Notes: a model not told the origin generated them from the letters alone. DNA of 20,000 bases from an uncultured virus (IMG/VR IMGVR_UViG_2788500220_000008) (IMGVR_UViG_2788500220_000008:51680-71679); one strand, 5' to 3'. Shown: positions 42 to 19,861, counted from the first letter of the stretch. A program made the numbers and translations.

Positions 42-605
42 CTAATAAGTCCCAGTCGGAATAAGTGCAGTCTCGTCTCCCGCCACCTGAAGCGGCATGG
101 CTTGATACATATTGTAAGACCTAACTAATTGATCTAGCAGCTCTTTGGCATCTAACGCTTGATTCCTCAGGGCCTTGGCTCCCTCTATGCCTCCCCCTCT
201 TTGACTGCCAGTAGAACTTCTCTTTATGACGGTGTCCCCCTCTTGAATAGAAACCCAATCCCCAGCAGCTATTGCAGAGCCTGCAGACGTTGACGAAGTG
301 GTTGCCGTTGAGGCGGCCATTTTTCTAGATTCTTTTGTGTAGTAATCGCGAAGGTATATCTGAACCAGTATTGCCTTTTCTTCAGCTTTTATAGGCGGGC
401 AAAAGTCAGCTTGAGAATCAACACCAAACGAAGTGTGTAGCAATACGTTCATCTGCCCGACGTTAGTAGACAGGTATCCAGATATTGTAGACTTTAAGGC
501 TGCCCTTTGCGCTACCGCTGCATCCCACGATGCAGCCTCGCCAGTAACATAGTCGAGTTCGACATTTATAATGTGCTCGGAAAGTTCGTCTATGTCGCTA
601 GGCAT
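42..605 (-). CDS. Putative head-completion/head-tail adaptor protein (187 aa)
   Basis: Intact ORF two genes downstream of the major capsid gene; function inferred from position and size only. Confidence 0.4.
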   Translation of the reverse strand: MPSDIDELSEHIINVELDYVTGEAASWDAAVAQRAALKSTISGYLSTNVGQMNVLLHTSFGVDSQADFCPPIKAEEKAILVQIYLRDYYTKESRKMAASTATTSSTSAGSAIAAGDWVSIQEGDTVIKRSSTGSQRGGGIEGAKALRNQALDAKELLDQLVRSYNMYQAMPLQVAGDETALIPTGTY

Positions 606-610
606 CGCAC

Positions 611-1018
611 TTAAGTCCTAGATGTCTTTCTAATAGATTTCGCTACATCTGAATCTGGATCGACTGCGGGCTTCAAGGGCGAGCTCAGAGTTCCAATCTT
701 AGCGGCATGAAAAGCCTTTTTCAGCTTATTCCTCAGAATAGGCCTAGTGCCGGATGGGAAAACTCCCGCCCTTACTGCCAATGCTTGCATGTCGGTAAGA
801 TTCATGCTCGCAATTTTTTCTTCAAACTCATCCTCATCTTCTGTCTTGAATGGGTTAAGCCTTGAAAGCCCCACCGCTTTTTCCAGTCTTTTAATCTCCG
901 CAACCTTCTCTTCTTTAGTCTGGTATGCGGTATGATCCTTTCCGTCCGCGAACTGCATAGGCTTTTTCTTAGTCGATTTGCGTTTTGCAGTAGTCTTCTT
1001 TGTGGGTTTGTTTGCCAT
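611..1018 (-). CDS. Basic hypothetical protein with SAP/HeH-like DNA-binding motif (135 aa)
   Basis: ATG at 1018 (MANKPTKK) preceded by AGGAGTAAGGAAA RBS; Lys-rich N-terminus; MNLTDMQALAVRAGVFPSGTRPILRNKL resembles a helix-extension-helix motif. Confidence 0.6.
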   Translation of the reverse strand: MANKPTKKTTAKRKSTKKKPMQFADGKDHTAYQTKEEKVAEIKRLEKAVGLSRLNPFKTEDEDEFEEKIASMNLTDMQALAVRAGVFPSGTRPILRNKLKKAFHAAKIGTLSSPLKPAVDPDSDVAKSIRKTSRT

Positions 1019-1048
1019 AATTTCCTTACTCCTTTTTCTATTATACCC

Positions 1049-1057
1049 TATATACAC
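1049..1057 (-). promoter_or_regulatory. Candidate phage late promoter GTGTATATA
   Basis: Same motif recurs just upstream of five other genes; lies immediately after the capsid terminator. Confidence 0.55.
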
Positions 1058-1088
1058 AAAAAATCCACTCGTAATGAGCGGATTTTTT
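1058..1088 (-). terminator. Rho-independent terminator after the major capsid gene
   Basis: Minus strand reads AAAAAATCCGCTC-ATTAC-GAGTGGATTTTTT: stem with one G-U pair and a U-tract, 25 nt after the MCP stop. Confidence 0.85.
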
Positions 1089-1113
1089 GCGAAAGAATGA
1101 TATTTGAGAGAGC

Positions 1114-2274
1114 CTATGAGGCTGCGTCAACCACCATACCGTACAGAACTCGGTTGTCGAGAATCATGCGGCCCTCTTCAAGCGACCCGTAGTAGCCGAC
1201 CTTTTGCTGACGACTCACGAATTGGTCATCGGGAACCAAGGAAAGCTCGGACCCATTATCAGCGTCGGTTGCGACGGCACGGACCATCATGTCTGCACGA
1301 CTGCGGTCAATACCGAGAATGAAATCATCGGCAGCATTATAACTATAGCCAACAAGAGGCTTGCCTGTGGCCTTTACGCCTGTTGCGCCATTNGGAAGCA
1401 GATCNNTCCAAACCTTGGTGTACTTAGCANCCGGACCCAACTCAAGAGTTTCTTGAATGTTAATGCCGTAGAACTCAGGAATTCCGCCGTTGCTGTAGAT
1501 AGCATCACGCATCGAGTCTGTGGCAGGAATACCGCCAGCAGAGTTGTCCACCGTAACGGCAGTACCGTCAGCATCGCGAGTGGCAATCGGATTGTAAGCC
1601 ATTTCACGGAGGTTCTCAACAACTTCTGGGGAAACGAGTAGATCTGTGATTCCACCTGCTCCACCTACTGGTGTGCCGCCCGTCCAAGAAGTATGAATAC
1701 GCTTGGAGAGAGTGAGCATCTTATTGAAGTCATGAAGAATGACGCGACCGGGCTGTGTGTTCTTAAGCGTATGGAAAACGCCATTGGTTTCGGCGTTGAC
1801 TTGAGCGGTCAAGATCATGTTGGCGGAAGTGGTCTCCATCTTAAGGAGCAATTCCTGAGCCATGCGGGTGAATGTTTTACTGAGGACATCCATGCGAGAG
1901 CGAGCAACGTACTTCTTGTCGAAGCTCAAGGCACTGTCCAGACGATATGTCGTGAACTTAAGCTCTTGAGTTGTGGGAGCCACTTGGTTGCTTGGAAGAC
2001 CGCCGGGAGCGTTCTGACTCCAAATCTCAATATAATCTTCGTCAGTAATGTCGAAGTAGAGGTCCAGAGGAATGCTTGGATTGTCGTCGGCCGTAAAAGA
2101 CAGCGTCTTGAACATGTTGCTCAGCGTCGGAGCTTGCTGGATAACTTCAGCGAGCACCGGAGCGATGAATTCGGCTAAAGCCGCTTGAGCTTCGTAAGCA
2201 ACGTCCCTGTCCTTGGAGGCCATTGCCTTTACTAGTTCGAGCTGTTCTTCGGTTCGTTTTAGTGTGATATTCAT
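1114..2274 (-). CDS. Major capsid protein (probably HK97 fold, ~386 aa)
   Basis: Order portal-protease-decoration-MCP, followed by a strong terminator; size and P-domain-like segments (DLLVSPEV, EFYGINI, GRMILDNRVL); likely start at ATG 2274 (MNITLKR). Confidence 0.8.
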   Translation of the reverse strand: MNITLKRTEEQLELVKAMASKDRDVAYEAQAALAEFIAPVLAEVIQQAPTLSNMFKTLSFTADDNPSIPLDLYFDITDEDYIEIWSQNAPGGLPSNQVAPTTQELKFTTYRLDSALSFDKKYVARSRMDVLSKTFTRMAQELLLKMETTSANMILTAQVNAETNGVFHTLKNTQPGRVILHDFNKMLTLSKRIHTSWTGGTPVGGAGGITDLLVSPEVVENLREMAYNPIATRDADGTAVTVDNSAGGIPATDSMRDAIYSNGGIPEFYGINIQETLELGPXAKYTKVWXDLLXNGATGVKATGKPLVGYSYNAADDFILGIDRSRADMMVRAVATDADNGSELSLVPDDQFVSRQQKVGYYGSLEEGRMILDNRVLYGMVVDAAS

Positions 2275-2310
2275 TGTTTGGTGATCCCTATAAGTTAAAA
2301 GATTCTGCAA

Positions 2311-2985
2311 TTATAGTTCTAGCTTCAAAAGGAAGACTGTACCGGCGTGCACATCTACATTAGATGGTCCTTGTGCGGCGCGAGAGCCAACTGCAAGAAC
2401 TGTTCCGACGGCGGCACCGCCCTCGGAGGAGCTATTAAAGAGGAGCTTGCCTTCGGGGTCTCCTGCAAGGTAGGCAATTTGGCCAGCTGCAGGAACTAAA
2501 TTGGCGGCGGTGGCGGCGGTAGATCCGTCTTTTTTCTTGGTTCCAATCGCTCTTGAGTCAAGCATGAAGATTCCCTTCGTTGCGATGGGAACGGCTTGCC
2601 CGGGAGAAAGCGCGTGATACTCATCCTTTTTGACGGGATAGCGGAGAAGATTCTCTCCGTTCTCGTCGAACTTGGCAGTTTGACGAAGAGTCATGCCGAG
2701 AACCGCGTCTGACTTTTCAGCAGCCTCAACCTTGAGGGGAACCTCAGGGTATTTGTTGTATCCCAGATGAGGAATCGTGTGATTACCCATCATGTAGTTG
2801 CTGATGCCATCTTCGTATCCTACAGGGCTCGCGTCGAGGTCTCCTGCGGTCACAGTCACAAATGCTCCTGCATCCCCTTCTCCGGAGTCGTTGAGCTTGT
2901 CGTTAACGTCGGCGTTAGCGAGCGCGAATAGGTTGATGACGTCGTGTTCGTCGTAATCTCTGAATGGTAGAAGTCGAATAGCCAT
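2311..2985 (-). CDS. Putative capsid decoration/cement protein (224 aa)
   Basis: Gly/Ala-rich, beta-type sequence located between the scaffold and MCP genes. Confidence 0.55.
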   Translation of the reverse strand: MAIRLLPFRDYDEHDVINLFALANADVNDKLNDSGEGDAGAFVTVTAGDLDASPVGYEDGISNYMMGNHTIPHLGYNKYPEVPLKVEAAEKSDAVLGMTLRQTAKFDENGENLLRYPVKKDEYHALSPGQAVPIATKGIFMLDSRAIGTKKKDGSTAATAANLVPAAGQIAYLAGDPEGKLLFNSSSEGGAAVGTVLAVGSRAAQGPSNVDVHAGTVFLLKLEL

Positions 2986-2989
2986 TGTA

Positions 2990-4606
2990 TTAGTAGTTTA
3001 CTGTTACGTGTTCTTTAGTGAACGCTTGTTTAAATTTTTGTTTGAGTGTTAGGTCTTCTTCTGAAGATTCTGCATTGTTGTTTGCGACAGCTTCGCCAGT
3101 TTCTTCTGCATTTTCCAATGCGGTGTCCACGACTTGCTCTTCGCTTTCCTCGGAAGTCTCTTCCTGAGATGCGTTGGAAATCTCAGCAAGTCGCTTTTCG
3201 ACCTCCTGATCAATCTTTTCCTTAAGTGATTCCTCCTGCTTGGCTATTTGCTCTTTACTCTTGTGAGCCCATACTACGGCAAGTTTGGCCTGATACTCGG
3301 TAAAGGCCTCTTCGGATTCATCGAGCGACTTAACTTCGGAAGCAAGAATCTGCCGGTCTTCGTCGTCGAGTTGATAAATTTCGTCTACAGCGGCCATCCG
3401 GACTTGAAACCTTTCGGCGGCTTCACGAACCTTGTTGTCTTCTTCAAGACTAGTAAGTGATTCCTTTGTGTCCTTCAATTCGGATTCGAGATTTGAAACC
3501 TTAGCCTCGAATTCAGCTTGCGCTTTAAGAAGTTCTTCCTTTTCGTTTTTGGCTTGCTCGATTTCTTCGACATATTCTTCGTTCTTTACTTTAATGGCAT
3601 CACGAAAGATTTGTCCAAGATTCGCAACAGCTTCATCCGAAAAGCTTTTCTCAGACTTAACGTCTTTGAGTGCTTTTGTGAATTCTTCGATGAGTTGTGA
3701 ATTTTCCATAACTTTTCTGGTGTTTGTTGTTTTTACATGTTCCTGCGAACATTGGGAAATTATTTCTTTATTATTTTTAATTTTTTTTAAAAATTCTAAA
3801 TTATTTATATTAAAACTTTTACAGTCTGCGTAATCCTCCTCTTCTTCCTGACTCTCATGTGCGCCTATTTTTTCTACGTGTACGCCTTGAACATCTGCGG
3901 CCGGATTGGTTGTAAAGCCGATTCCCAAAGGATATACTTCCCCAGACAGTAATCTATAGACAGGTACGCCATCATCAGNTTCTCCAGCCCCTTCATTAGC
4001 TCTTAAATATTTTGAGTATTCCTCAATTTTTTTCTCATCTGTAATGATTTCTGCATTAGATAAGTCCTTGTCTCCCAGTGCAATAATATAATCATTGAAC
4101 CCAACCTCCCAGCTTGCGGAGATGTATTCGTTGTAGTTTTCCGGGTTGTCCGCCATCATTGCGAGCATCTGGGCGAAGGGTCCTCCAGCCATCTTATATA
4201 ATACTGCGGCCAAGGAAATATTGAATGGGGTGATGGTTCCTGCGACTTCAGCCTTCGACAAGAGCCTATTATCGCCAAAGGTAGAAAATGAACTTGATAC
4301 AATATGCCCTACTATATTGTCCCTTTCATGCTCTACATTCGTAGGCTTATGAATAAAGTAATCCCCCACCGCAAGAGCAGTCTCTGTATCTATGCCGTCT
4401 CCATTTTTATTAAACCTATTTACCACGGCAGCGTTAAAGGCTACCGCAACTAAGTCTAAATTCTGCTCAAGATCAATGTCTTCAGGTATTAAGGGTCTCA
4501 ATGACTGCAGAGACGCCTCGGTGATATTCATAGACGGGTCATCGATAGATGACGACGCAGTTATTTCCCCGGTGAATTTGGTCTTATACTTGAAAGGTCT
4601 TTTCAT
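2990..4606 (-). CDS. Prohead protease fused to an acidic coiled-coil scaffold (538 aa)
   Basis: N-terminal NKNGD, KPTNVEH..IVGHI, SASWE and GIGFTTNPA motifs typical of phage maturation proteases; C-terminal Glu/Lys-rich coiled coil; follows the portal gene. Confidence 0.75.
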   Translation of the reverse strand: MKRPFKYKTKFTGEITASSSIDDPSMNITEASLQSLRPLIPEDIDLEQNLDLVAVAFNAAVVNRFNKNGDGIDTETALAVGDYFIHKPTNVEHERDNIVGHIVSSSFSTFGDNRLLSKAEVAGTITPFNISLAAVLYKMAGGPFAQMLAMMADNPENYNEYISASWEVGFNDYIIALGDKDLSNAEIITDEKKIEEYSKYLRANEGAGEXDDGVPVYRLLSGEVYPLGIGFTTNPAADVQGVHVEKIGAHESQEEEEDYADCKSFNINNLEFLKKIKNNKEIISQCSQEHVKTTNTRKVMENSQLIEEFTKALKDVKSEKSFSDEAVANLGQIFRDAIKVKNEEYVEEIEQAKNEKEELLKAQAEFEAKVSNLESELKDTKESLTSLEEDNKVREAAERFQVRMAAVDEIYQLDDEDRQILASEVKSLDESEEAFTEYQAKLAVVWAHKSKEQIAKQEESLKEKIDQEVEKRLAEISNASQEETSEESEEQVVDTALENAEETGEAVANNNAESSEEDLTLKQKFKQAFTKEHVTVNY

Positions 4607-4615
4607 GTATTTTAA

Positions 4616-4625
4616 TATTATACAC
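4616..4625 (-). promoter_or_regulatory. Candidate late promoter GTGTATAATA
   Basis: 9 nt upstream of the protease ATG; identical copy upstream of the portal gene. Confidence 0.65.
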
Positions 4626-4649
4626 GGAAAGATCTGAAATTACACAAGT

Positions 4650-6698
4650 TTATTCTGAAGAGTGGTATAGTATCGCGGACGGATATTGCTCCAACTCGTG
4701 GCTGGCGGATATATCAAGAACGTCTTTTATAGACGAAAGTTTCTCTAGTTCTTCTATATTTTTAATGCATGTATCTACAGACGACTCCCAGTCTTTCTTT
4801 TCTTTTGAGCAGACAACTGCTTCGATGAATGTGTCAACCATTTGGTTTTGAGCCTTATTCAATCGTTTTACTGAAAACTGTTTCTTTATACCTTTAGTTG
4901 CGTGCGCGCGTAAAGATTCTATTTTGTATACCGTTTCTTGAATATTCTTTCTGCTATAAGAGGCCTTGCCTGCCTGAGGCCCGGTAGTGCCTGAAGGCCT
5001 TCCGTTCTGATTGGGGGTTTTCTTTTGGGCTGGGGGTTTTTTTGTAGGAGCAGCGGGAGCAGGCTTGGAATCGATAGCTTTCTCTTTAATATCCCTTTCC
5101 TCTTGTGCTCCCGGGGCTTCCACGGCAGGGACTCCGCCAACAAGAGGATTCCAATACCCCTTTTCTCTCTGCTCTGCGTAAAGCTCTTGGGCGGGCGCAA
5201 GGTCCGCTGGGCTTGGGTAAATCCCTGTCTTGATGACATCTACGCCTTGCTCCGGAGTTAGTATTCCGATCTCAATTAGGCGAGTGGCGACTCTTTGCAG
5301 CTGAACCTCATCCTTGATATCGAGCTCCTCAAAGCGGGCTGCAGGAAACTTCCTGAATCCCAAATTTCTGCAAATGAGTTTTATTTGAGGCTGAATAAAG
5401 TCATGAATAAATGCATGCCTCGCTTCTTTTAGCCTTTCTAGGAATATCTGAGCTTTAACTTGGGTGTTGGCGAACTTCTCATTTCCGACAACTACATTTT
5501 GCAAGCCTTCTCGAATATCGTTATTGACTATCTCGTATTTGTCTGGCCCAATAATCTTAGAAATATCGGGAATAATAAATTCAGCGTCAGTAGTGTAGTC
5601 GCTGACCAGAACTCTTCCCACGCTCTCATTTTGGAAAAGCGCTTGCATCGCCTGAAGATTGTTCGCATTAATCCCACCCTTATCGGGTTCAGCGCCCATA
5701 GTAATAAGGAGAATTACATTTTCTATAGTTCTACTTACCGCTTGATCTATCTTCTTTAACTCAAGCTTCCAGTTGATATCGTCCAGAACTGGATAGCCGA
5801 ATGGAACCGCAAAAGGCTCATAGTCTTGTTTTTTATAGAAGCTATATGAGAGCTTTTCCGGCTCTAAGTCTATATAGATTCCCACGTCAAGGAATGTTCC
5901 CTTCTTAATCTCTCCTCTTTTCTTTTTCGGAAGCGCATCAAATATAGCCTTATCCTCCTCGGTAGATGGATTCCTCAGCTTCTCTAAGTCGTATTTTGAT
6001 AGCAGTTTTTTATAATTTGCCGAAGAGAAGGACGTTTTGGTGTCCATGGCGACATCATAAGGATTCAGTAATACATACTTTATTGGAATATGATTAGCTT
6101 TTAATTTCCCCGCCTCTCCGTATACTTTTGTAAGTTTTGCAAAGTCCTTGGTGCTGAATTTTCCGTCTATTCTATATAGAAAGATATTCCCCGTTTTATA
6201 GTATTCCCTAAAATATTGATCTTTCAACCCCCACAGGTTAATCTTTTCAAACCACTTGTATACAAAGTTTCTTGCCTTTTCGGAACCTCCTTCCAGCTTA
6301 AGCTCGGAATTAGTAAGTTCAGACATAATATCGATAGCATTCTTAAAAATAGCAATGTTTGCATAGGCTTTTTGGCATAAATCTATAGTGTCTCGAATGT
6401 TAATGCCGTCAGATCCGTACTCGTAGGGAAGCATGCCTCCACGAATATTTGCATATCTCTTATCCTTATCTTGAAACGATATAGCATTCCTGCGCCCTAA
6501 TGTCCGTGTCCCTTCTCCGGTCTTTCGAGTATAAGCGGTCGAGCCTGCCTCCGTATAGTAAGGTTGACCCGCTGATTGAGGCTCCGTCAATCCGCCATCA
6601 GGCTTAAAAAAATCCTCGATAGGCTTTGCACCATGACCCTTGTCTTGGTCGAATTTGCTCCAGTAGTCAGACTTCTTTGTATATTTTCTCTTTGCCAT
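4650..6698 (-). CDS. Portal protein (682 aa)
   Basis: Directly downstream of the large terminase; portal-like segments (AIFKNAIDIMSELT, YFREYYKTGNIFLY, GILTPEQG); Pro-rich C-terminal linker. Confidence 0.75.
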   Translation of the reverse strand: MAKRKYTKKSDYWSKFDQDKGHGAKPIEDFFKPDGGLTEPQSAGQPYYTEAGSTAYTRKTGEGTRTLGRRNAISFQDKDKRYANIRGGMLPYEYGSDGINIRDTIDLCQKAYANIAIFKNAIDIMSELTNSELKLEGGSEKARNFVYKWFEKINLWGLKDQYFREYYKTGNIFLYRIDGKFSTKDFAKLTKVYGEAGKLKANHIPIKYVLLNPYDVAMDTKTSFSSANYKKLLSKYDLEKLRNPSTEEDKAIFDALPKKKRGEIKKGTFLDVGIYIDLEPEKLSYSFYKKQDYEPFAVPFGYPVLDDINWKLELKKIDQAVSRTIENVILLITMGAEPDKGGINANNLQAMQALFQNESVGRVLVSDYTTDAEFIIPDISKIIGPDKYEIVNNDIREGLQNVVVGNEKFANTQVKAQIFLERLKEARHAFIHDFIQPQIKLICRNLGFRKFPAARFEELDIKDEVQLQRVATRLIEIGILTPEQGVDVIKTGIYPSPADLAPAQELYAEQREKGYWNPLVGGVPAVEAPGAQEERDIKEKAIDSKPAPAAPTKKPPAQKKTPNQNGRPSGTTGPQAGKASYSRKNIQETVYKIESLRAHATKGIKKQFSVKRLNKAQNQMVDTFIEAVVCSKEKKDWESSVDTCIKNIEELEKLSSIKDVLDISASHELEQYPSAILYHSSE

Positions 6699-6705
6699 CG
6701 TGAGA

Positions 6706-6715
6706 TATTATACAC
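6706..6715 (-). promoter_or_regulatory. Candidate late promoter GTGTATAATA
   Basis: 7 nt upstream of the portal ATG (6698). Confidence 0.65.
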
Positions 6716-6716
6716 G

Positions 6717-6757
6717 AAAGTCAAAGCAAAGTCAAAGTAAAGTTTAAAGTTGACTTT
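6717..6757. repeat. Short tandem AAAG(T/C) tract between terL and portal
   Basis: AAAGTC AAAGC AAAGTC AAAGT AAAGTTT AAAGTT GACTTT. Confidence 0.7.
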
Positions 6758-8634
6758 TAATTTACGAACATAGGGGTGAAGGTCACTTGCACTTCTTCCG
6801 TCTCAACGTGGAGCATGTCGTAGTAAACTTTTGTCATCCAATTCCCTAGTACAAGGGCGGAGTATAAGTCCTTTCTCGCTTTATCCGGGCCGGTCTGGCG
6901 CCTGAGCTCTAGGGGCATGTCAAATGTCTGCGTGCCCTGAGGAGAGGTGGAAATCTGGATTAATGCGCATTCCGCTTTTGTCAGGTTAATCATGTCTGCT
7001 TGATGCTCTATGAAATCAATCATCTTTGCTGAGGCGGATTGTTTGTCTACATCGGCGTGCATCGAAAACTTCAACTTATCAATGGGAATCTTTTTCTTTC
7101 TTTGAGAGTGGTAGGACTCATCTACAGCTCTTCCTGCAAAAAGAATTCTCTTGTGGTCAAAGTTAGCTTGCAGGAGTTCATTTGCCCTTCTGATCCATCC
7201 NCTGGAAGGTTTTTGCAAGTAACAAATCCGCTTGTCTTGTAAATTGTATTGCCTTTTTGCTTCTTTTAGTACGGCTGGATAATCTAAGACATTCGTAAAG
7301 TCCACATCCTTAATCTGCCGAATTTTAAGGTTGTCTTTCTTGAAAATAGAACTTTCATTCGCAGCGCTAAGGAACTGGACGCCTCCATTATAGTCTCCAA
7401 CGATAGAAACTATATTAAAATTATTCAATAGATAATGAAAGTATTTAATATGCTCCCGCAGTGTTGTGCCGGGGAGCGCATATCCATGAACAAATGTAGC
7501 CATTCTCTTTTCGTCGTCCAGCTTGAATACCTGCATAGCGAAATCGTCCGAGCTCTCTGATTCTGCCCAGCTAGGATCAAAGGATAAAAGATATTTAGCA
7601 GAGGGGTCTCCCTTTACTTCTACATGAGCGCCTTCTCCGTCCATTAATGTACACGCTGCCATCGTAGAGGTTTTGAAGTATCCTGAGCTGTCGTCAGTAA
7701 AAATCGCTCCGAACTCTCTGTCGAATTGACTTTGACTCATGCTTGACTTTGCTTGTTTTATCAAATTTTGGTCATAGAGCAGCTTAGGGGCACAATCATA
7801 ACTAAATTTCATAATTGCTCTTTTAGCTTCCGTAGGATCTTCAGTCGAGCTATTAATCAATCTATCAAACTGCTCATATAACTTATACATATACTCAAAT
7901 TTATAGCACGCAGAAGATAGCATAATAAGCTTATTGTTGGGCCAAACATGCTTTTCAGAGGGGTCCATCTTCCCCATCTTTATCAACTCCTCTTCCGCCC
8001 TATCTAGATCCTCTCTTTCCGTGGGGTTTTCAACAACAGACAAAAACGGAACGATTACCTCGTTATAAATCCTTTNGGGCATCAAGGCGAACTCATCAAT
8101 GATAATTCTATGAAACCTAAAACCCCGGAGTTTGTCTCCATCCCCAAGGGGCAAAGCACGGATTCTAGACGTCCCGATTTCCATTAGCCATTCGTCATTA
8201 CTTTTGGTCTTTTTAGTAATGCATTGGGCGAGATAGCCAGCTTCGGGCTTTGCTGCGATGTCTTCGATCTTTTTAAAAATCATCTTAGCCTGCCTGAAGG
8301 ACTTTGAAAGTATTCCAATCTCTACCCCCTGATTTAATATAGCGTCAAGAAAGGCAAAAATGCCAGTGGTGAACGATTTTGACATTCCCCGAGACCAGAC
8401 CCCCATAAAGTAATCAGTCTCGAACATGCTCTTGATGGCGAGATGCTGGAAAGGAAAAAGCTTAACCCCAGACACCAGATCAGAAGTAAATGTTATATTG
8501 CTTCTTAAAAACTTATACAACTCAATCTTAGCCTCATTCTCATCCAGATAGCCTTCTAGCTGCATCAACTCCTTATTTAATTGCTCGGATCCCTTTGTGC
8601 AGGAAACCGATTTACCACCAGCTTCCCAAGTCAT
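6757..8634 (-). CDS. terL: Terminase large subunit (625 aa)
   Basis: Adenine-binding LFPFQ, Walker A SRGMSKS, LRG motif, Walker B IIIDE, FDREF linker, RNase H-like nuclease residues (SFDPS, SDDFA, KDLYSA). Confidence 0.92.
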   Translation of the reverse strand: MTWEAGGKSVSCTKGSEQLNKELMQLEGYLDENEAKIELYKFLRSNITFTSDLVSGVKLFPFQHLAIKSMFETDYFMGVWSRGMSKSFTTGIFAFLDAILNQGVEIGILSKSFRQAKMIFKKIEDIAAKPEAGYLAQCITKKTKSNDEWLMEIGTSRIRALPLGDGDKLRGFRFHRIIIDEFALMPXRIYNEVIVPFLSVVENPTEREDLDRAEEELIKMGKMDPSEKHVWPNNKLIMLSSACYKFEYMYKLYEQFDRLINSSTEDPTEAKRAIMKFSYDCAPKLLYDQNLIKQAKSSMSQSQFDREFGAIFTDDSSGYFKTSTMAACTLMDGEGAHVEVKGDPSAKYLLSFDPSWAESESSDDFAMQVFKLDDEKRMATFVHGYALPGTTLREHIKYFHYLLNNFNIVSIVGDYNGGVQFLSAANESSIFKKDNLKIRQIKDVDFTNVLDYPAVLKEAKRQYNLQDKRICYLQKPSXGWIRRANELLQANFDHKRILFAGRAVDESYHSQRKKKIPIDKLKFSMHADVDKQSASAKMIDFIEHQADMINLTKAECALIQISTSPQGTQTFDMPLELRRQTGPDKARKDLYSALVLGNWMTKVYYDMLHVETEEVQVTFTPMFVN

Positions 8635-16599: not shown

Positions 16600-16905
16600 T
16601 TATAGGGCCCTACAGGAAAAAGTAGGGATCAAGAAGTGGCAAGACCATCGGTAAAACTCTGATCGTCGGGAGAAAAATAGGGCTGGGATTTTTTTCGACC
16701 CGTGCGCATTCTATAGTATAGATTATTGTTTTCATATTGAAGAAAACCACCCCCCCCGACTGTCTCAAACCTATTTGCGCTCGGGAATTTCAAAAAACCG
16801 GGGGGATAGGTCAAAATTGTCAAGCATAAAATTGATCTTTTTTTGTGTCTTATCCTTTCAATAGAATTGTGCAAGAAAATAGTTTAAAGTTTTTGCGAAA
16901 AAAAT

Positions 16906-17721: not shown

Positions 17722-17790
17722 ATGCTAGAAGCACTTCTAATGATCACATTCGCTCTACTAATACCAATTCTCACCAAGGCTAACTCATGA
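17722..17790 (+). CDS. Hydrophobic micropeptide 1, MLEALLMITFALLIPILTKANS (22 aa)
   Basis: AGGACAAGG upstream; paralog at 18938-19003 with synonymous codon differences; absent from the ORF track. Confidence 0.65.
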   Translation: MLEALLMITFALLIPILTKANS

Positions 17791-17807
17791 ACTGGTAGCT
17801 TAAGTCA

Positions 17808-17874
17808 TAAGTGGCTGACCCACAAGGGGTTACGCCGCGACTGGCGGCATAAGTACTTGGTGTTCAATGAGTTA
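17808..17874. repeat. Phased palindrome array A: 2 x 25-bp units, 42-bp period
   Basis: TAAGTGGCTG-ACCCA-CAAGGGGTTA, 17-bp GC-rich spacer, TAAGTACTTG-GTGTT-CAATGAGTTA. Confidence 0.8.
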
Positions 17875-17885
17875 CGAAAGCTCCG

Positions 17886-17902
17886 TACACATAGCGTGCC
17901 AA
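17886..17902 (-). promoter_or_regulatory. Sigma54-like box facing array A
   Basis: TTGGCACG-CTAT-GTGTA: canonical -24 element, non-canonical -12. Confidence 0.4.
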
Positions 17903-17975
17903 TCTCACCACTTGCACGCAATCTCACCACTTGCACGCAAACACACCACTTGCACGCAAACGCACCACTTGCACC
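17900..17975. repeat. Tandem direct repeat, 4 x 19 bp
   Basis: CAATCTCACCACTTGCACG x2, CAAACACACCACTTGCACG, CAAACGCACCACTTGCACC. Confidence 0.95.
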
Positions 17976-17996
17976 ATTTGTGTTTAACGCAACCAC

Positions 17997-18052
17997 GGGC
18001 AGTAGAATAAGACACAAACAAAAGTAGGATTGTTTTGCCCGTATGGCTTGAC
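17997..18052 (+). repeat. 56-bp promoter-upstream repeat, copy 1
   Basis: 44/56 identical, without gaps, to 19782-19837; ends in TTGAC of the -35 box. Confidence 0.85.
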
Positions 18053-18076
18053 TTTTCGGAAAAACTAGACTAAATT
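18048..18076 (+). promoter_or_regulatory. Sigma70-type promoter P3 (leaderless)
   Basis: TTGACT-17 bp-TAAATT-6 nt-ATG 18083. Confidence 0.75.
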
Positions 18077-18082
18077 ATAGGT

Positions 18083-18262
18083 ATGTTGAAAATAAAAGAT
18101 ATCGTTCGGATGCCCAACGGAAAAGTTGGAGATGTCCAGTCCATTCATGAAGGCAATGCCATCCACCCCGATGGGCTTGCTTGGGTACGCTTCTACCGCT
18201 CACAGCGTGGAGCGTGGTTTCGCGTTAGCGAACTGCGACCGCTAAAATGGCTCAACGACTGA
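18083..18262 (+). CDS. Small beta-rich (KOW/SH3-like) hypothetical protein (59 aa)
   Basis: MLKIKDIVRMPNGKVGDVQSIHEGNAIHPDGLAWVRFYRSQRGAWFRVSELRPLKWLND; begins at +1 of P3; absent from the ORF track. Confidence 0.7.
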   Translation: MLKIKDIVRMPNGKVGDVQSIHEGNAIHPDGLAWVRFYRSQRGAWFRVSELRPLKWLND

Positions 18263-18296
18263 GCCAAAAAAAACTTAAAAAAAAATGGTGAATCGC

Positions 18297-18325
18297 TTGA
18301 CTTTTCCGCAAAACTAAACTAAGTT
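18297..18325 (+). promoter_or_regulatory. Sigma70-type promoter P4 (leaderless)
   Basis: TTGACT-17 bp-TAAGTT-6 nt-ATG 18332; 18295-18334 is 32/40 identical to the P3 region 18046-18085. Confidence 0.75.
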
Positions 18326-18331
18326 TATAGT

Positions 18332-18574
18332 ATGAAACAACAATATAAAGACCTACTGGACAACGACAAGCTTCCCGCTTTCCCTCTTTCCTCGAAGATT
18401 TTCGACTTGGGGCGAGAAGCCGAGTCGGTTGCCCGAGTTGCACAGAAGAGGATTGATGAAGAGGGCGAGCACGCCCAAATCCATTGTTCCAACATTGTCG
18501 AGTGGATGAACGCAATCGCTGAGAACGCTCAAAAAGCTCTCGACTTTCACTTAAACCAAAACGCCAACAAATAG
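18332..18574 (+). CDS. Hypothetical helical protein (80 aa), paralog of 16966-17205
   Basis: ATG at +1 of P4; internal paralogy. Confidence 0.75.
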   Translation: MKQQYKDLLDNDKLPAFPLSSKIFDLGREAESVARVAQKRIDEEGEHAQIHCSNIVEWMNAIAENAQKALDFHLNQNANK

Positions 18575-18586
18575 GAAGGGAAGCAA

Positions 18587-18751
18587 ATGTACATCCTGCA
18601 ATCAATCGCCAACAACGCAAAATCTTTCGCCAATATCAACTGGCGTACCGAGTCCTTGCCAATGCCATTGCGAAAAGCTGAAAGGCTAATGAAGCAACGC
18701 CTTGCCAATGCAAAGGCAACTCGCTACCGCCTCCGCAAAACCAACGCATAA
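18587..18751 (+). CDS. Basic hypothetical protein (54 aa)
   Basis: AGGAAGGG RBS; MYILQSIANNAKSFANINWRTESLPMPLRKAERLMKQRLANAKATRYRLRKTNA; fills the gap between neighbours. Confidence 0.6.
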   Translation: MYILQSIANNAKSFANINWRTESLPMPLRKAERLMKQRLANAKATRYRLRKTNA

Positions 18752-18761
18752 TCTAATCGCC

Positions 18762-18938
18762 ATGATAGCCACAAGAAAAAATCCGAACTTCTCAAACTGG
18801 ATACAAGTGTTTTTCTTCGGACGCCTTGTCGATGAAGTAACAGGAAACGCCAAAGCTTTACGCCTTGCAAATGAGCTTGGGAAAAAGCACAAGCAAACGC
18901 ACATAAACCATCTTGGCGAAGCAGTAAAGGTACGCTAA
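18762..18938 (+). CDS. Hypothetical protein (58 aa)
   Basis: Start MIATRKNP at 18762 avoids overlap with the upstream ORF; stop overlaps the next ATG (TAATG). Confidence 0.65.
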   Translation: MIATRKNPNFSNWIQVFFFGRLVDEVTGNAKALRLANELGKKHKQTHINHLGEAVKVR

Positions 18939-19003
18939 TGCTAGAAGCTACGCTAATGATACTCTTTGCAATTCTAATCCCGTTCTTGACAAAGTTGGCA
19001 TGA
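18938..19003 (+). CDS. Hydrophobic micropeptide 2, MLEATLMILFAILIPFLTKLA (21 aa)
   Basis: TAATG translational coupling; paralog of 17722-17790. Confidence 0.65.
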   Translation: MLEATLMILFAILIPFLTKLA

Positions 19004-19037
19004 ATCCTGTACCCGAGGAATTGGCATGAAATCTGAA
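18995..19037 (+). promoter_or_regulatory. Two tandem sigma54-like boxes facing array B
   Basis: TTGGCATG-AATC-CTGTA (18995-19011) and TTGGCATG-AAAT-CTGAA (19021-19037). Confidence 0.4.
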
Positions 19038-19048
19038 CGCTAGATTCA

Positions 19049-19157
19049 CAAGTCGCTGATAGCCAAGGGGTTAGGCGGCGCAGGGTGTCGTAAGTCATTG
19101 ATACACAGTAGGTTGCACCGCGTAGGGCGTCGTAAGTCGTTGATAATCAACGGGATG
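19049..19157. repeat. Phased palindrome array B: 3 x 25-bp units, 42-bp period
   Basis: Units start at 19049, 19091 and 19133; 17-bp GC-rich spacers; two exact IHF-consensus matches (YAANNNNTTGATW) at 19091-19103 and 19133-19145. Confidence 0.85.
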
Positions 19158-19173
19158 CCCGTCTGAGTGCGCT

Positions 19174-19260
19174 GTTATTTGGCGTTATTTGGCGCGGAGT
19201 TCACCAGTGTCCACTGCTGTCCACTGCTGTCCACTGCTGTCCCTAGTAGTCCGCCTACTA
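19174..19260. repeat. Cluster of 10-bp tandem repeats and a small inverted repeat
   Basis: GTTATTTGGC x2 (19174-19193), CCACTGCTGT x3 (19211-19240), TAGTAG-TCCGC-CTACTA (19244-19260). Confidence 0.85.
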
Positions 19261-19305
19261 CCACCTAGTAGCCTAACTATAATCTAAAAAAAAGAAAAAT
19301 AAAAC

Positions 19306-19334
19306 TTGCTTTATAGGCCCGCACACTGTAGCTT
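19306..19334 (+). promoter_or_regulatory. Sigma70-type promoter P5 (leaderless)
   Basis: A-tract, then TTGCTT-17 bp-TAGCTT-6 nt-ATG 19341. Confidence 0.7.
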
Positions 19335-19340
19335 GTACTT

Positions 19341-19670
19341 ATGGAAATTGAAAATGATTCTCTCGCCCGCCTTGCTCACGCCCACGGCATGACCGACCTC
19401 GAATTCGAGGAACGGGAAGCTGTGCTTGCTGACATTGCCCAGCAGCAGGTCATCCGTCGCAGAATGGAGGAGGAGGCCCGCCGTGACGAGTGGTGCGAAG
19501 GTGCGGGGATTCCGTCTATCGACGAGTTCCCTCCTTTGTCCGCTGAGGATTTGGCCGCCATTGAACGCGATGAGGCCGAGGTTGCTCGTCGTGTGGCTGA
19601 GGCCCGCGAGCGTGAGGCCAACACTGACTTCTCAATACTCACTGACGAGGAGATGGGCGGAGACTGGTAG
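19341..19670 (+). CDS. Highly acidic hypothetical protein (109 aa)
   Basis: 31 Asp/Glu, 12 Arg, no Lys; ATG at +1 of P5. Confidence 0.75.
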   Translation: MEIENDSLARLAHAHGMTDLEFEEREAVLADIAQQQVIRRRMEEEARRDEWCEGAGIPSIDEFPPLSAEDLAAIERDEAEVARRVAEAREREANTDFSILTDEEMGGDW

Positions 19671-19673
19671 ACG

Positions 19674-19740
19674 TAAGTCCTTGGCCCACAGGGGGTTACG
19701 GCCCCCTGCGCGGCATAAGTACCTGATATGCAGCAACTTA
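19674..19740. repeat. Phased palindrome array C: 2 x 25-bp units, 42-bp period
   Basis: TAAGTCCTTG-GCCCA-CAGGGGGTTA, 17-bp spacer, TAAGTACCTG-ATATG-CAGCAACTTA; followed by a near-identical copy of the 26-bp tail that follows array A. Confidence 0.85.
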
Positions 19741-19751
19741 TGAAAGCTCCG

Positions 19752-19768
19752 TACAGATAGCGTGCCAG
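19752..19768 (-). promoter_or_regulatory. Sigma54-like box facing array C
   Basis: CTGGCACG-CTAT-CTGTA. Confidence 0.4.
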
Positions 19769-19781
19769 TTTGCTTGGAGAG

Positions 19782-19837
19782 GGGCAGTAGAATAGTGCAA
19801 GAAAAAAAGTAGAATTGTTTTGCCCAATCGGTTTGAC
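19782..19837 (+). repeat. 56-bp promoter-upstream repeat, copy 2
   Basis: 44/56 identical to 17997-18052. Confidence 0.85.
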
Positions 19838-19861
19838 AAATCGGGTTTTTGGGCTTATGTT
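19833..19861 (+). promoter_or_regulatory. Sigma70-type promoter P6
   Basis: TTGACA-17 bp-TATGTT; leader ATAACAAATTAAAAAAGGAAAA resembles the P1 leader. Confidence 0.8.

Follow-up and report, generated by a model that had tools for sequence, protein, structure and literature searches.

Predicted sigma54 docking sites set in register on IHF-type dyad arrays in the early region of an uncultured phage

The window analyzed here is the whole 20,000-nt stretch IMGVR_UViG_2788500220_000008:51680-71679 of an uncultured virus. It carries sigma54-type -24/-12 boxes beside three arrays of dyads among its early genes. We predict, with a probability of roughly 45%, that host sigma54-RNA polymerase docks at these boxes, which are set in register on IHF-type boundary modules, and that the boxes stay silent. 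The coupling of sigma54 box and IHF-type dyad is, judged from sequence, real and conserved. It is a new arrangement of known parts, and we infer its function. The boxes and arrays are as follows.

17886..17902, minus strand: sigma54 -24/-12 box A, TTGGCACG CTAT GTGTA, T at -12, position weight matrix (PWM) score 15.3
19021..19037, plus strand: sigma54 box B, TTGGCATG AAAT CTGAA, A at -12, PWM score 13.9
18995..19011, plus strand: second (tandem) B box, 26 bp upstream of box B, PWM score 15.2
19752..19768, minus strand: sigma54 box C, CTGGCACG CTAT CTGTA, T at -12, PWM score 17.8, the top score of the phage
17806..17876, no strand assigned: array A, two 29-bp dyads (17806-17834 and 17848-17876) with a 42-bp period and a GC-rich spacer
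19047..19159, no strand assigned: array B, three dyads (19047-19075, 19089-19117, and 19131-19159), the last half-decayed
19672..19742, no strand assigned: array C, two dyads (19672-19700 and 19714-19742)

The window forms the end of contig C4 in the G000 bin, and contigs C1, C4, and C12 (about 126 kb) were taken as phage DNA. A 214-nt overlap (98.6%) joins C12 to the end of C4, and C12 extends the early region. C1 overlaps the start of C4. Boxes A and C face into their arrays antisense to the early genes, and box B faces into array B in the sense direction. The distance from G(-20) to the first dyad base, called the gap below, is 18 nt for boxes A, B, and C. A fourth in-register box lies at the same distance before the next array, in C12. 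The sequence-only reading had reported the box sequences, their coordinates, and the second B box 26 bp away, and all were recovered as given. It had also placed a box at an identical distance from each array, pointing inward. That describes the boxes of this phage; 10 of its 14 arrays have no box, and the family varies. The boxed arrays here are the first four of the 14. The boxed modules are 1 to 3 plus 7 of 11 in G003, 2 to 6 plus 9 of 13 in G002, and 1 of 7 seen in G001. The tandem B box overlaps the stop codon of a 21-aa open reading frame (ORF) and is missing in the paralogous copy on C12.

TGGCAYG-N5-TG occurs 6 times in the 126 kb, against an expectation of 1.45. At a single fixed distance from the 28 array ends taken together, 1.6e-4 boxes were expected and 4 were seen, far above chance. 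An RpoN PWM was built from 16 Escherichia coli promoters, and both strands were scanned (125,853 nt). The five array-adjacent boxes ranked 1, 2, 3, 4, and 7. They scored 13.9 to 17.8, compared with 13.3 to 21.1 for the E. coli promoters (in-sample); the RpoN scoring proposed in the sequence-only reading places them in the promoter range. All five have GG at -25/-24 within TGGCAYR.

The -12 element deviates, as had been noted earlier. It is T or A in all boxes of the window, and C is found at -12 in 96% of sigma54 promoters (PMC4551910). Other bases at -12 are tolerated in vivo, with TGTA at E. coli pspA and pspG and TGAA at hydN (PMC4591121; checked on E. coli DNA). Counted by eye, 4 of 42 intergenic-sense E. 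coli sites lack the C, including pspA and pspG, and further low-stringency sites in the supplements of that paper could shift these counts (PMC4591121). The boxes are credible predicted sigma54 sites of a minority type.

The register is kept in other phages, which the sequence-only reading had set as a test. A viral scan imposing only TGGCAYG, 5 to 35 nt before a dyad, gave at least 157 loci. It had 140 distinct matches listed, 119 of them with a strong dyad. Removal of 21 weak-dyad and 48 redundant matches left 71 non-redundant ones. Among these 71 listed matches, the gap was 18 to 19 nt in 32, 21 to 25 in 14, 29 to 31 in 14, and elsewhere in 11. The spacing from box to dyad is, on these counts, discrete and roughly helical. 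T at -14 and G at -13 were recovered at the exact spacing in 57 of the 71 listed, with -12 not imposed. The reciprocal scan imposed only TGWAC and the dyad. It gave 35 loci in a complete listing, and 32 had an in-register -24 box (29 TGGCAYR and 3 TGGCGCG).

The -12 base follows the gap. Among TG-bearing boxes in the matches listed, none of the 16 at gap 18 has C, as against 3 of the 14 at gap 19 and all 12 at gaps 21 to 25. Lineage may confound this trend. Gap-18 boxes have an additional conserved C at -10 (15 of 17 listed). The boxes range continuously to the canonical TGCT, even inside one phage (G002, G003, and G004). Their sigma54 identity, as first proposed, is supported by the two reciprocal scans, by TGCT in all 12 listed TG-bearing boxes at gaps 21 to 25, and by the E. 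coli PWM. The extra C at -10 and the missing -12 C would also suit another protein, from host or phage, in contact with the array protein and reading a motif that resembles the sigma54 consensus, and the palindromic double boxes described below could fit a dimer. We consider such a protein quite improbable, since the series runs without a break to TGCT within single phages and the exact -24 to -13 spacing was recovered unimposed. The spacing within double boxes is also variable (3 to 8 nt).

The array unit was defined by an iterated PWM. It is a 29-bp dyad, YRTAASTCVYTG-N5-CARBGASTTAYR, in which each arm is an IHF core read outward, giving a symmetrised IHF core. The gap between arms is fixed at 5 nt (213 units, versus 0 to 2 for other gaps, in the loci examined). 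The spacing of TTG-N5-CAA fits the 9-bp spacing of IHF kinks. Of 60 half-sites, 52 contain CAR-N4-TTR and 13 the full consensus; these were selected by PWM, and the counts are partly circular. The IHF consensus WATCAR-N4-TTR is from PMC3897727. Its strict form occurs four times in the 20-kb window, three times in array B and once in array C. The dyads come in twos or threes, spaced 42 bp here and 41 to 53 bp in relatives, and each array lies after the end of a gene and before the early promoter that follows. IHF is the candidate binder. Readings as integron attC or CbrB-type activator sites were dropped because the fixed spacing lies within the 29-bp dyad, while the spacer between dyads ranges from 10 to 24 nt. 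Another flank motif at a fixed distance, GATGCATMT, is found at arrays of L058 and L076, a lineage without sigma54 boxes. TTGACA-type elements often face into arrays at short distance in the distant relatives L023 to L083, much as the sigma54 boxes do here.

The dyads are read as DNA sites rather than RNA structures because their arms vary independently and only the box-side unit has a G-U bias (121:38); the second unit has none (82:70). The sequence-only reading had suggested promoters making array RNAs, which is not supported: arm pairing is at shuffle level save for one position. Folding z-scores favor the box strand only mildly (-1.75 to -2.37, compared with -1.38 to -1.81). An Rfam search gave only chance-level matches. 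The one RNA run covered, X1, available as contigs, contained a fraction of 0.06 of the words, and the two contigs placed on the sequence gave no information on start sites. A structured RNA, hairpin, or PeSL-type terminator was rejected, as there is no covarying, strand-biased pairing. PeSL cassettes of T4-type phages likewise place a repeated element between nonessential early genes, beside strong sigma70-like promoters (PMC2839356). PeSL stem-loops are RNA terminators, whereas the dyads here behave as DNA protein sites with optional sigma54 boxes.

At gap 18 the first dyad spans -1 to +28 and covers the start site and the initial transcribed region. In the standard sigma54 register, the +1 positions predicted earlier hold (17875, 19048, and 19741). 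They had been placed one base before the palindrome; the conserved dyad begins at -1, and +1 is its second base. The C-purine step at +1 is present, but it is the consensus start of the dyad and does not count as separate evidence for a start site. Away from dyads, a pyrimidine-purine step at -1/+1 is found in 8 of 77 boxes, compared with 8 of 16 E. coli promoters. The dyad is centered at +14. The E. coli IHF sites are upstream, at -43 (pspG), -45 (glnH), and -60 (pspA). The classical role of IHF at sigma54 promoters, invoked in the first reading, does not fit a downstream site; an upstream IHF site is found only with outward boxes of other lineages. No conserved enhancer was seen, the spacer sequences being variable, and no dedicated enhancer motif search was made.

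The closest known systems are IHF-assisted promoters (E. coli pspA, pspG, and glnH; Desulfovibrio vulgaris orp, PMC3897727). They have the same -24/-12 elements, a psp-type T at -12, and an adjacent IHF-consensus site. Their IHF site is located between the enhancer and the promoter, upstream at -43 to -79, with a gene downstream. The dyad here is symmetric, is centered at +14 over the start site, and comes in two or three copies; no enhancer was found, and most boxes have no gene ahead of them. Silent or repressive sigma54 sites are likewise occupied without transcription, some of them antisense (PMC4591121, PMC4551910); occupancy here is predicted. Those sites are chromosomal and uncoupled from IHF dyads. 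The repressive ones keep the -12 C and overlap a sigma70 promoter; boxes A and C are some 65 to 146 nt away from the next -35.

Gene direction was judged by an AT-skew proxy. The gap-18 class has 23 antisense, 8 sense, and 2 unclear boxes of 33. The gap-19 class has 42 antisense, 1 sense, and 1 unclear of 44. On this proxy, gene direction does not matter to box placement. The antisense boxes of G002 to G004 lie between the module and the next sigma70 promoter and have no gene to serve. Inward boxes stand at both ends of 12 modules. Boxes near modules also occur in tandem at 24 to 34 bp, back to back with 8 to 10 nt between them, and head to head, overlapping and spanning 33 to 38 bp. These multiplied arrangements cannot all be promoters.

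Such arrangements bear on the reading that the boxes are true activator-dependent sigma54 promoters. A host enhancer-binding protein would fire them from solution or from IHF-folded downstream DNA. The transcripts would run through the module and, at A and C, disturb the early cassette upstream or, at B, enter the next gene. The first early genes would be tied to a host signal, and the loss of IHF as genome copies increase could set the time of firing. The high-quality -24 and -14T/-13G elements are in favor of this reading, as are the -12 variants identical to those of pspA, pspG, and hydN, the antisense bias at gap 19 (42 of 44), and the classical geometry of the outward class. Putative activator sites lie downstream of sigma54 motifs in Pseudomonas putida (10.1101/2021.08.29.457346). 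Phage YuA has a sigma54-like start site (PMC10914365), and the co-binned bacterium has rpoN and 16 activator-domain matches, 11 of them strong. We nevertheless consider such promoters rather unlikely, although they are the strongest rival to silent docking. The start site is buried within a high-consensus dyad, no conserved enhancer was seen, the initiator signal is not seen away from dyads, boxes overlap head to head or stand at both ends, and the co-binned bacterium is only a putative host. If these are promoters, a host activator would control the first genes of lytic phages. In YuA a host sigma54-type element is likewise used by a phage; the available text describes one mapped start site and mentions no repeated IHF-coupled or head-to-head architecture (PMC10914365).

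Silent docking appears to us the better fit. In its favor are the discrete spacing, the indifference to gene direction, the multiplied boxes and viral head-to-head pairs, the double boxes of L017, the scarcity of the pyrimidine-purine step away from dyads, the placement on the first modules, and the failure to find rpoN, HU/IHF, or activator genes in the phage records searched. The early cassettes are each bounded by two or three dyads that symmetrise the IHF core. Host IHF would bend each dyad. The holoenzyme would sit on the -24/-12 box as a closed complex, needing no activator. Its footprint presumably stops just before the dyad. With no enhancer, and with IHF on the downstream DNA, the complex would stay silent. 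Parked polymerase and bent DNA would together make a bulky boundary directly upstream of the strong sigma70 early promoters, which lie in what is probably the first part of the genome to enter the cell. The likeliest benefit would be insulation of the early promoters from spreading nucleoid silencers or end-loading nucleases, and this is the least supported step. IHF acts in counter-silencing at Mu. Once genomes multiply, sigma54 would also be sequestered as a by-product. Sigma54 holoenzyme stays silent unless an activator is present (PMC7057263), and the majority of E. coli sigma54 sites are occupied yet silent (PMC4591121). Among the options offered in the sequence-only reading, the data agree best with a silent docking site, and PMC4591121 argues against a pure roadblock to elongating RNA polymerase.

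Several points weigh against silent docking. The -12 C restrains basal transcription and is found at all repressive sites (PMC4551910), and the class abutting the dyad lacks it (0 of 16 at gap 18 in the matches listed). The working promoters pspA, pspG, and hydN share the -12 variants of the boxes. Sigma54 holoenzyme is no block to elongation in E. coli (PMC4591121). The antisense bias at gap 19 is equally expected from a directional function. An orientation control gave 66 distinct outward matches, many with weak dyads. The dyad is centered at -43/-44, the classical IHF position, in 11 of 23 non-redundant outward boxes, which suggests that their lineages have real promoters. The box is dispensable: of 184 array ends in PhoH-selected relatives, just 2 carry one. 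The cases are phylogenetically non-independent. GC content at -10 to -1 is 0.48 here and 0.40 in the 16 E. coli promoters; because this difference has a P value of 0.055, the melting region is not clearly unmeltable.

GC content of the melting region as proof of silence was given little weight, the comparison with the 16 E. coli promoters being nonsignificant. The value of 0.48 compares with 0.26 in 25 predicted chromosomal sites of the bin. At -10 to -5 the GC content is 0.63, compared with 0.36 in E. coli. This GC-rich segment argues against leaky sigma54 promoters that bypass the activator and fire without an enhancer-binding protein as the -12 C is replaced. A non-C base at -12 correlates with bypass (PMC4551910), the -12 C is absent from the gap-18 boxes (0 of 16 listed), and no activator was found in the phage contigs or related records. 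Bypass is low level and required deletion of Region I in PMC4551910, and many related boxes keep the -12 C. We regard it as very improbable.

Head-to-head pairs are, in these comparisons, a viral trait. A gap of 3 to 8 nt was found in 121 of 136 viral pairs and 42 of 116 pairs in prokaryote genomes, and four or more boxes stand at 64 of 110 viral loci and 8 of 113 prokaryote loci (matches listed in each case). An IHF dyad accompanies 6 of the 110 listed viral contig loci with head-to-head pairs. The pairs in L459 to L583 and L708 to L787 reach 13 boxes per locus, often between terminase and early genes. The denser clusters often lie between divergent genes, and 25 of 80 listed are at most 1 kb from a contig end. 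Neighboring genes were sampled by profile scans of 50 of 133 listed ORFs, from 35 loci and picked mainly by size. Terminase was found in 10 of these loci, an anti-restriction protein in 2, and PhoH in 1. L017, a PhoH relative, has seven copies of a 31-bp head-to-head double sigma54-like box at cassette boundaries (527-6930), and six of them precede TTGACT. No IHF dyad was found in L017; the double box stands in its place. G/C tracts adjoin sigma54 clusters in other phages.

The boxes might instead be decoys that soak up sigma54 holoenzyme and mute host psp or rtc responses. Their indifference to orientation, their multiplication to 13 per locus in other phages, and their psp-like -12 base would suit a decoy, but there are only 5 boxes in about 126 kb here, against 135 sites on the chromosome of E. 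coli (PMC4591121). A sponge could work without base-exact register to an IHF dyad, and the canonical -12 C would be expected of it. We hold a decoy to be improbable. We would tentatively extend silent docking, at less than even odds, to many unrelated phages that would exploit stable binding without firing, a property found only in sigma54 polymerase, and coat the entry end and early-cassette junctions with parked host polymerase, alone in head-to-head arrays or against symmetric IHF sites, as a shield or insulator and possibly an entry ratchet. The available text of a review gives the ejection-ratchet idea no support (PMC13330545). Such boxes would be promoter sequences selected against transcribing. 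Literature searches, mostly of papers outside subscription, returned no report of IHF-coupled sigma54 boxes or phage head-to-head arrays.

If silent docking is true, sigma54 sites can serve as structural elements, not promoters, and phages exploit them widely. Head-to-head pairs occur at at least 125 viral loci, and a -24 box stands ahead of the IHF-like dyad pattern at at least 157. The modules would then be a natural test bed for the purpose of silent sigma54 occupancy and for the role of the -12 C, which is testable here because its replacement tracks with abutment to the IHF dyad. They are shorter than 120 bp and testable with E. coli proteins.

The phage origin of the window is indicated by PHROGs matches to PhoH, an ERCC4-type nuclease, and a methyltransferase. 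Resemblance suggests terminase-, portal-, and capsid-like ORFs. The structural genes lie on the minus strand to about 16.3 kb, and small early-type ORFs with sigma70-type promoters lie beyond on the plus strand. Other features of this region are as follows.

16748..16806, no strand assigned: C-tract/G-tract inverted segment near the divergence of the PhoH-structural block (minus) and the early block (plus), a possible genome-end region
17900..17974, plus strand: four 19-bp tandem repeats that abut box A and contain TTGCACG, possibly a decayed back-to-back box
18048..18076, plus strand: predicted sigma70-type promoter for the early cassette behind box A
19341..19670, plus strand: 109-aa early ORF of unknown family without a PHROG match, between the convergent boxes B and C, its stop codon abutting array C
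19833..19861, plus strand: sigma70-type early promoter behind box C, likewise predicted

Tandem repeats flank array B (10 bp, 19176-19243) as well as array A (19 bp, 17900-17974). A 63-nt promoter-upstream block with arms GGGCA...TGCCC, 76% identical, is present at 17997-18059 and 19782-19844, behind boxes A and C. Paralogous hydrophobic micro-ORFs of 22 aa (17722-17790, plus) and 21 aa (18938-19003, plus) each stop just before an array, and the second terminates within the upstream B box. GTGTATA lies shortly upstream of 16333, 6698, 4606, and 1018 (minus), before PhoH, portal, protease-like, and 135-aa ORFs. It is likely a late promoter.

Searches for the host gave no assignment, and the portal protein had no match among cultured phages. 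The sequence-only reading had proposed a check for rpoN or activator genes in the phage and predicted host. No rpoN, HU/IHF, or GAFTGA activator gene was found in four related phage records (three complete), and none of the rpoN, activator-domain, or HU/IHF matches of the bin is on C1, C4, or C12. The main contigs of the bin contain rpoN, three HU/IHF genes, and the activator domains. The window contig has a GC content of 44% and the co-binned bacterium 37 to 38%, and the bin holds further phage-like contigs; for these reasons its rpoN is no proof of host. Relatives of the portal protein are spread over 14 genome records from several phyla, which indicates mis-binning. A box-plus-dyad search of genome contigs gave 13 loci, just 4 with a second dyad, and a perfect dyad search gave 9 scattered genomes. 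The closest PhoH relatives (L004 to L007) have neither dyads nor boxes in the DNA examined.

PF00158 matches in phage AAA+ proteins were set aside as ClpA/B-like and RuvB-like proteins without GAFTGA, labels given by resemblance. A RuvB-resembling AAA ATPase of 315 to 330 aa is present in relatives L392 and L393. The ClpA/B-like protein of G001 (L391) has a 45% match on C33 of G000. C33 and C24 may be further pieces of the phage of the window. The G000 bin contains several phage-like contigs, with near-duplicate pairs C7/C15/C29, C16/C25, and C6/C13. The early cassettes of L394, L395, and L398 contain tRNA genes, several directly before a single dyad.

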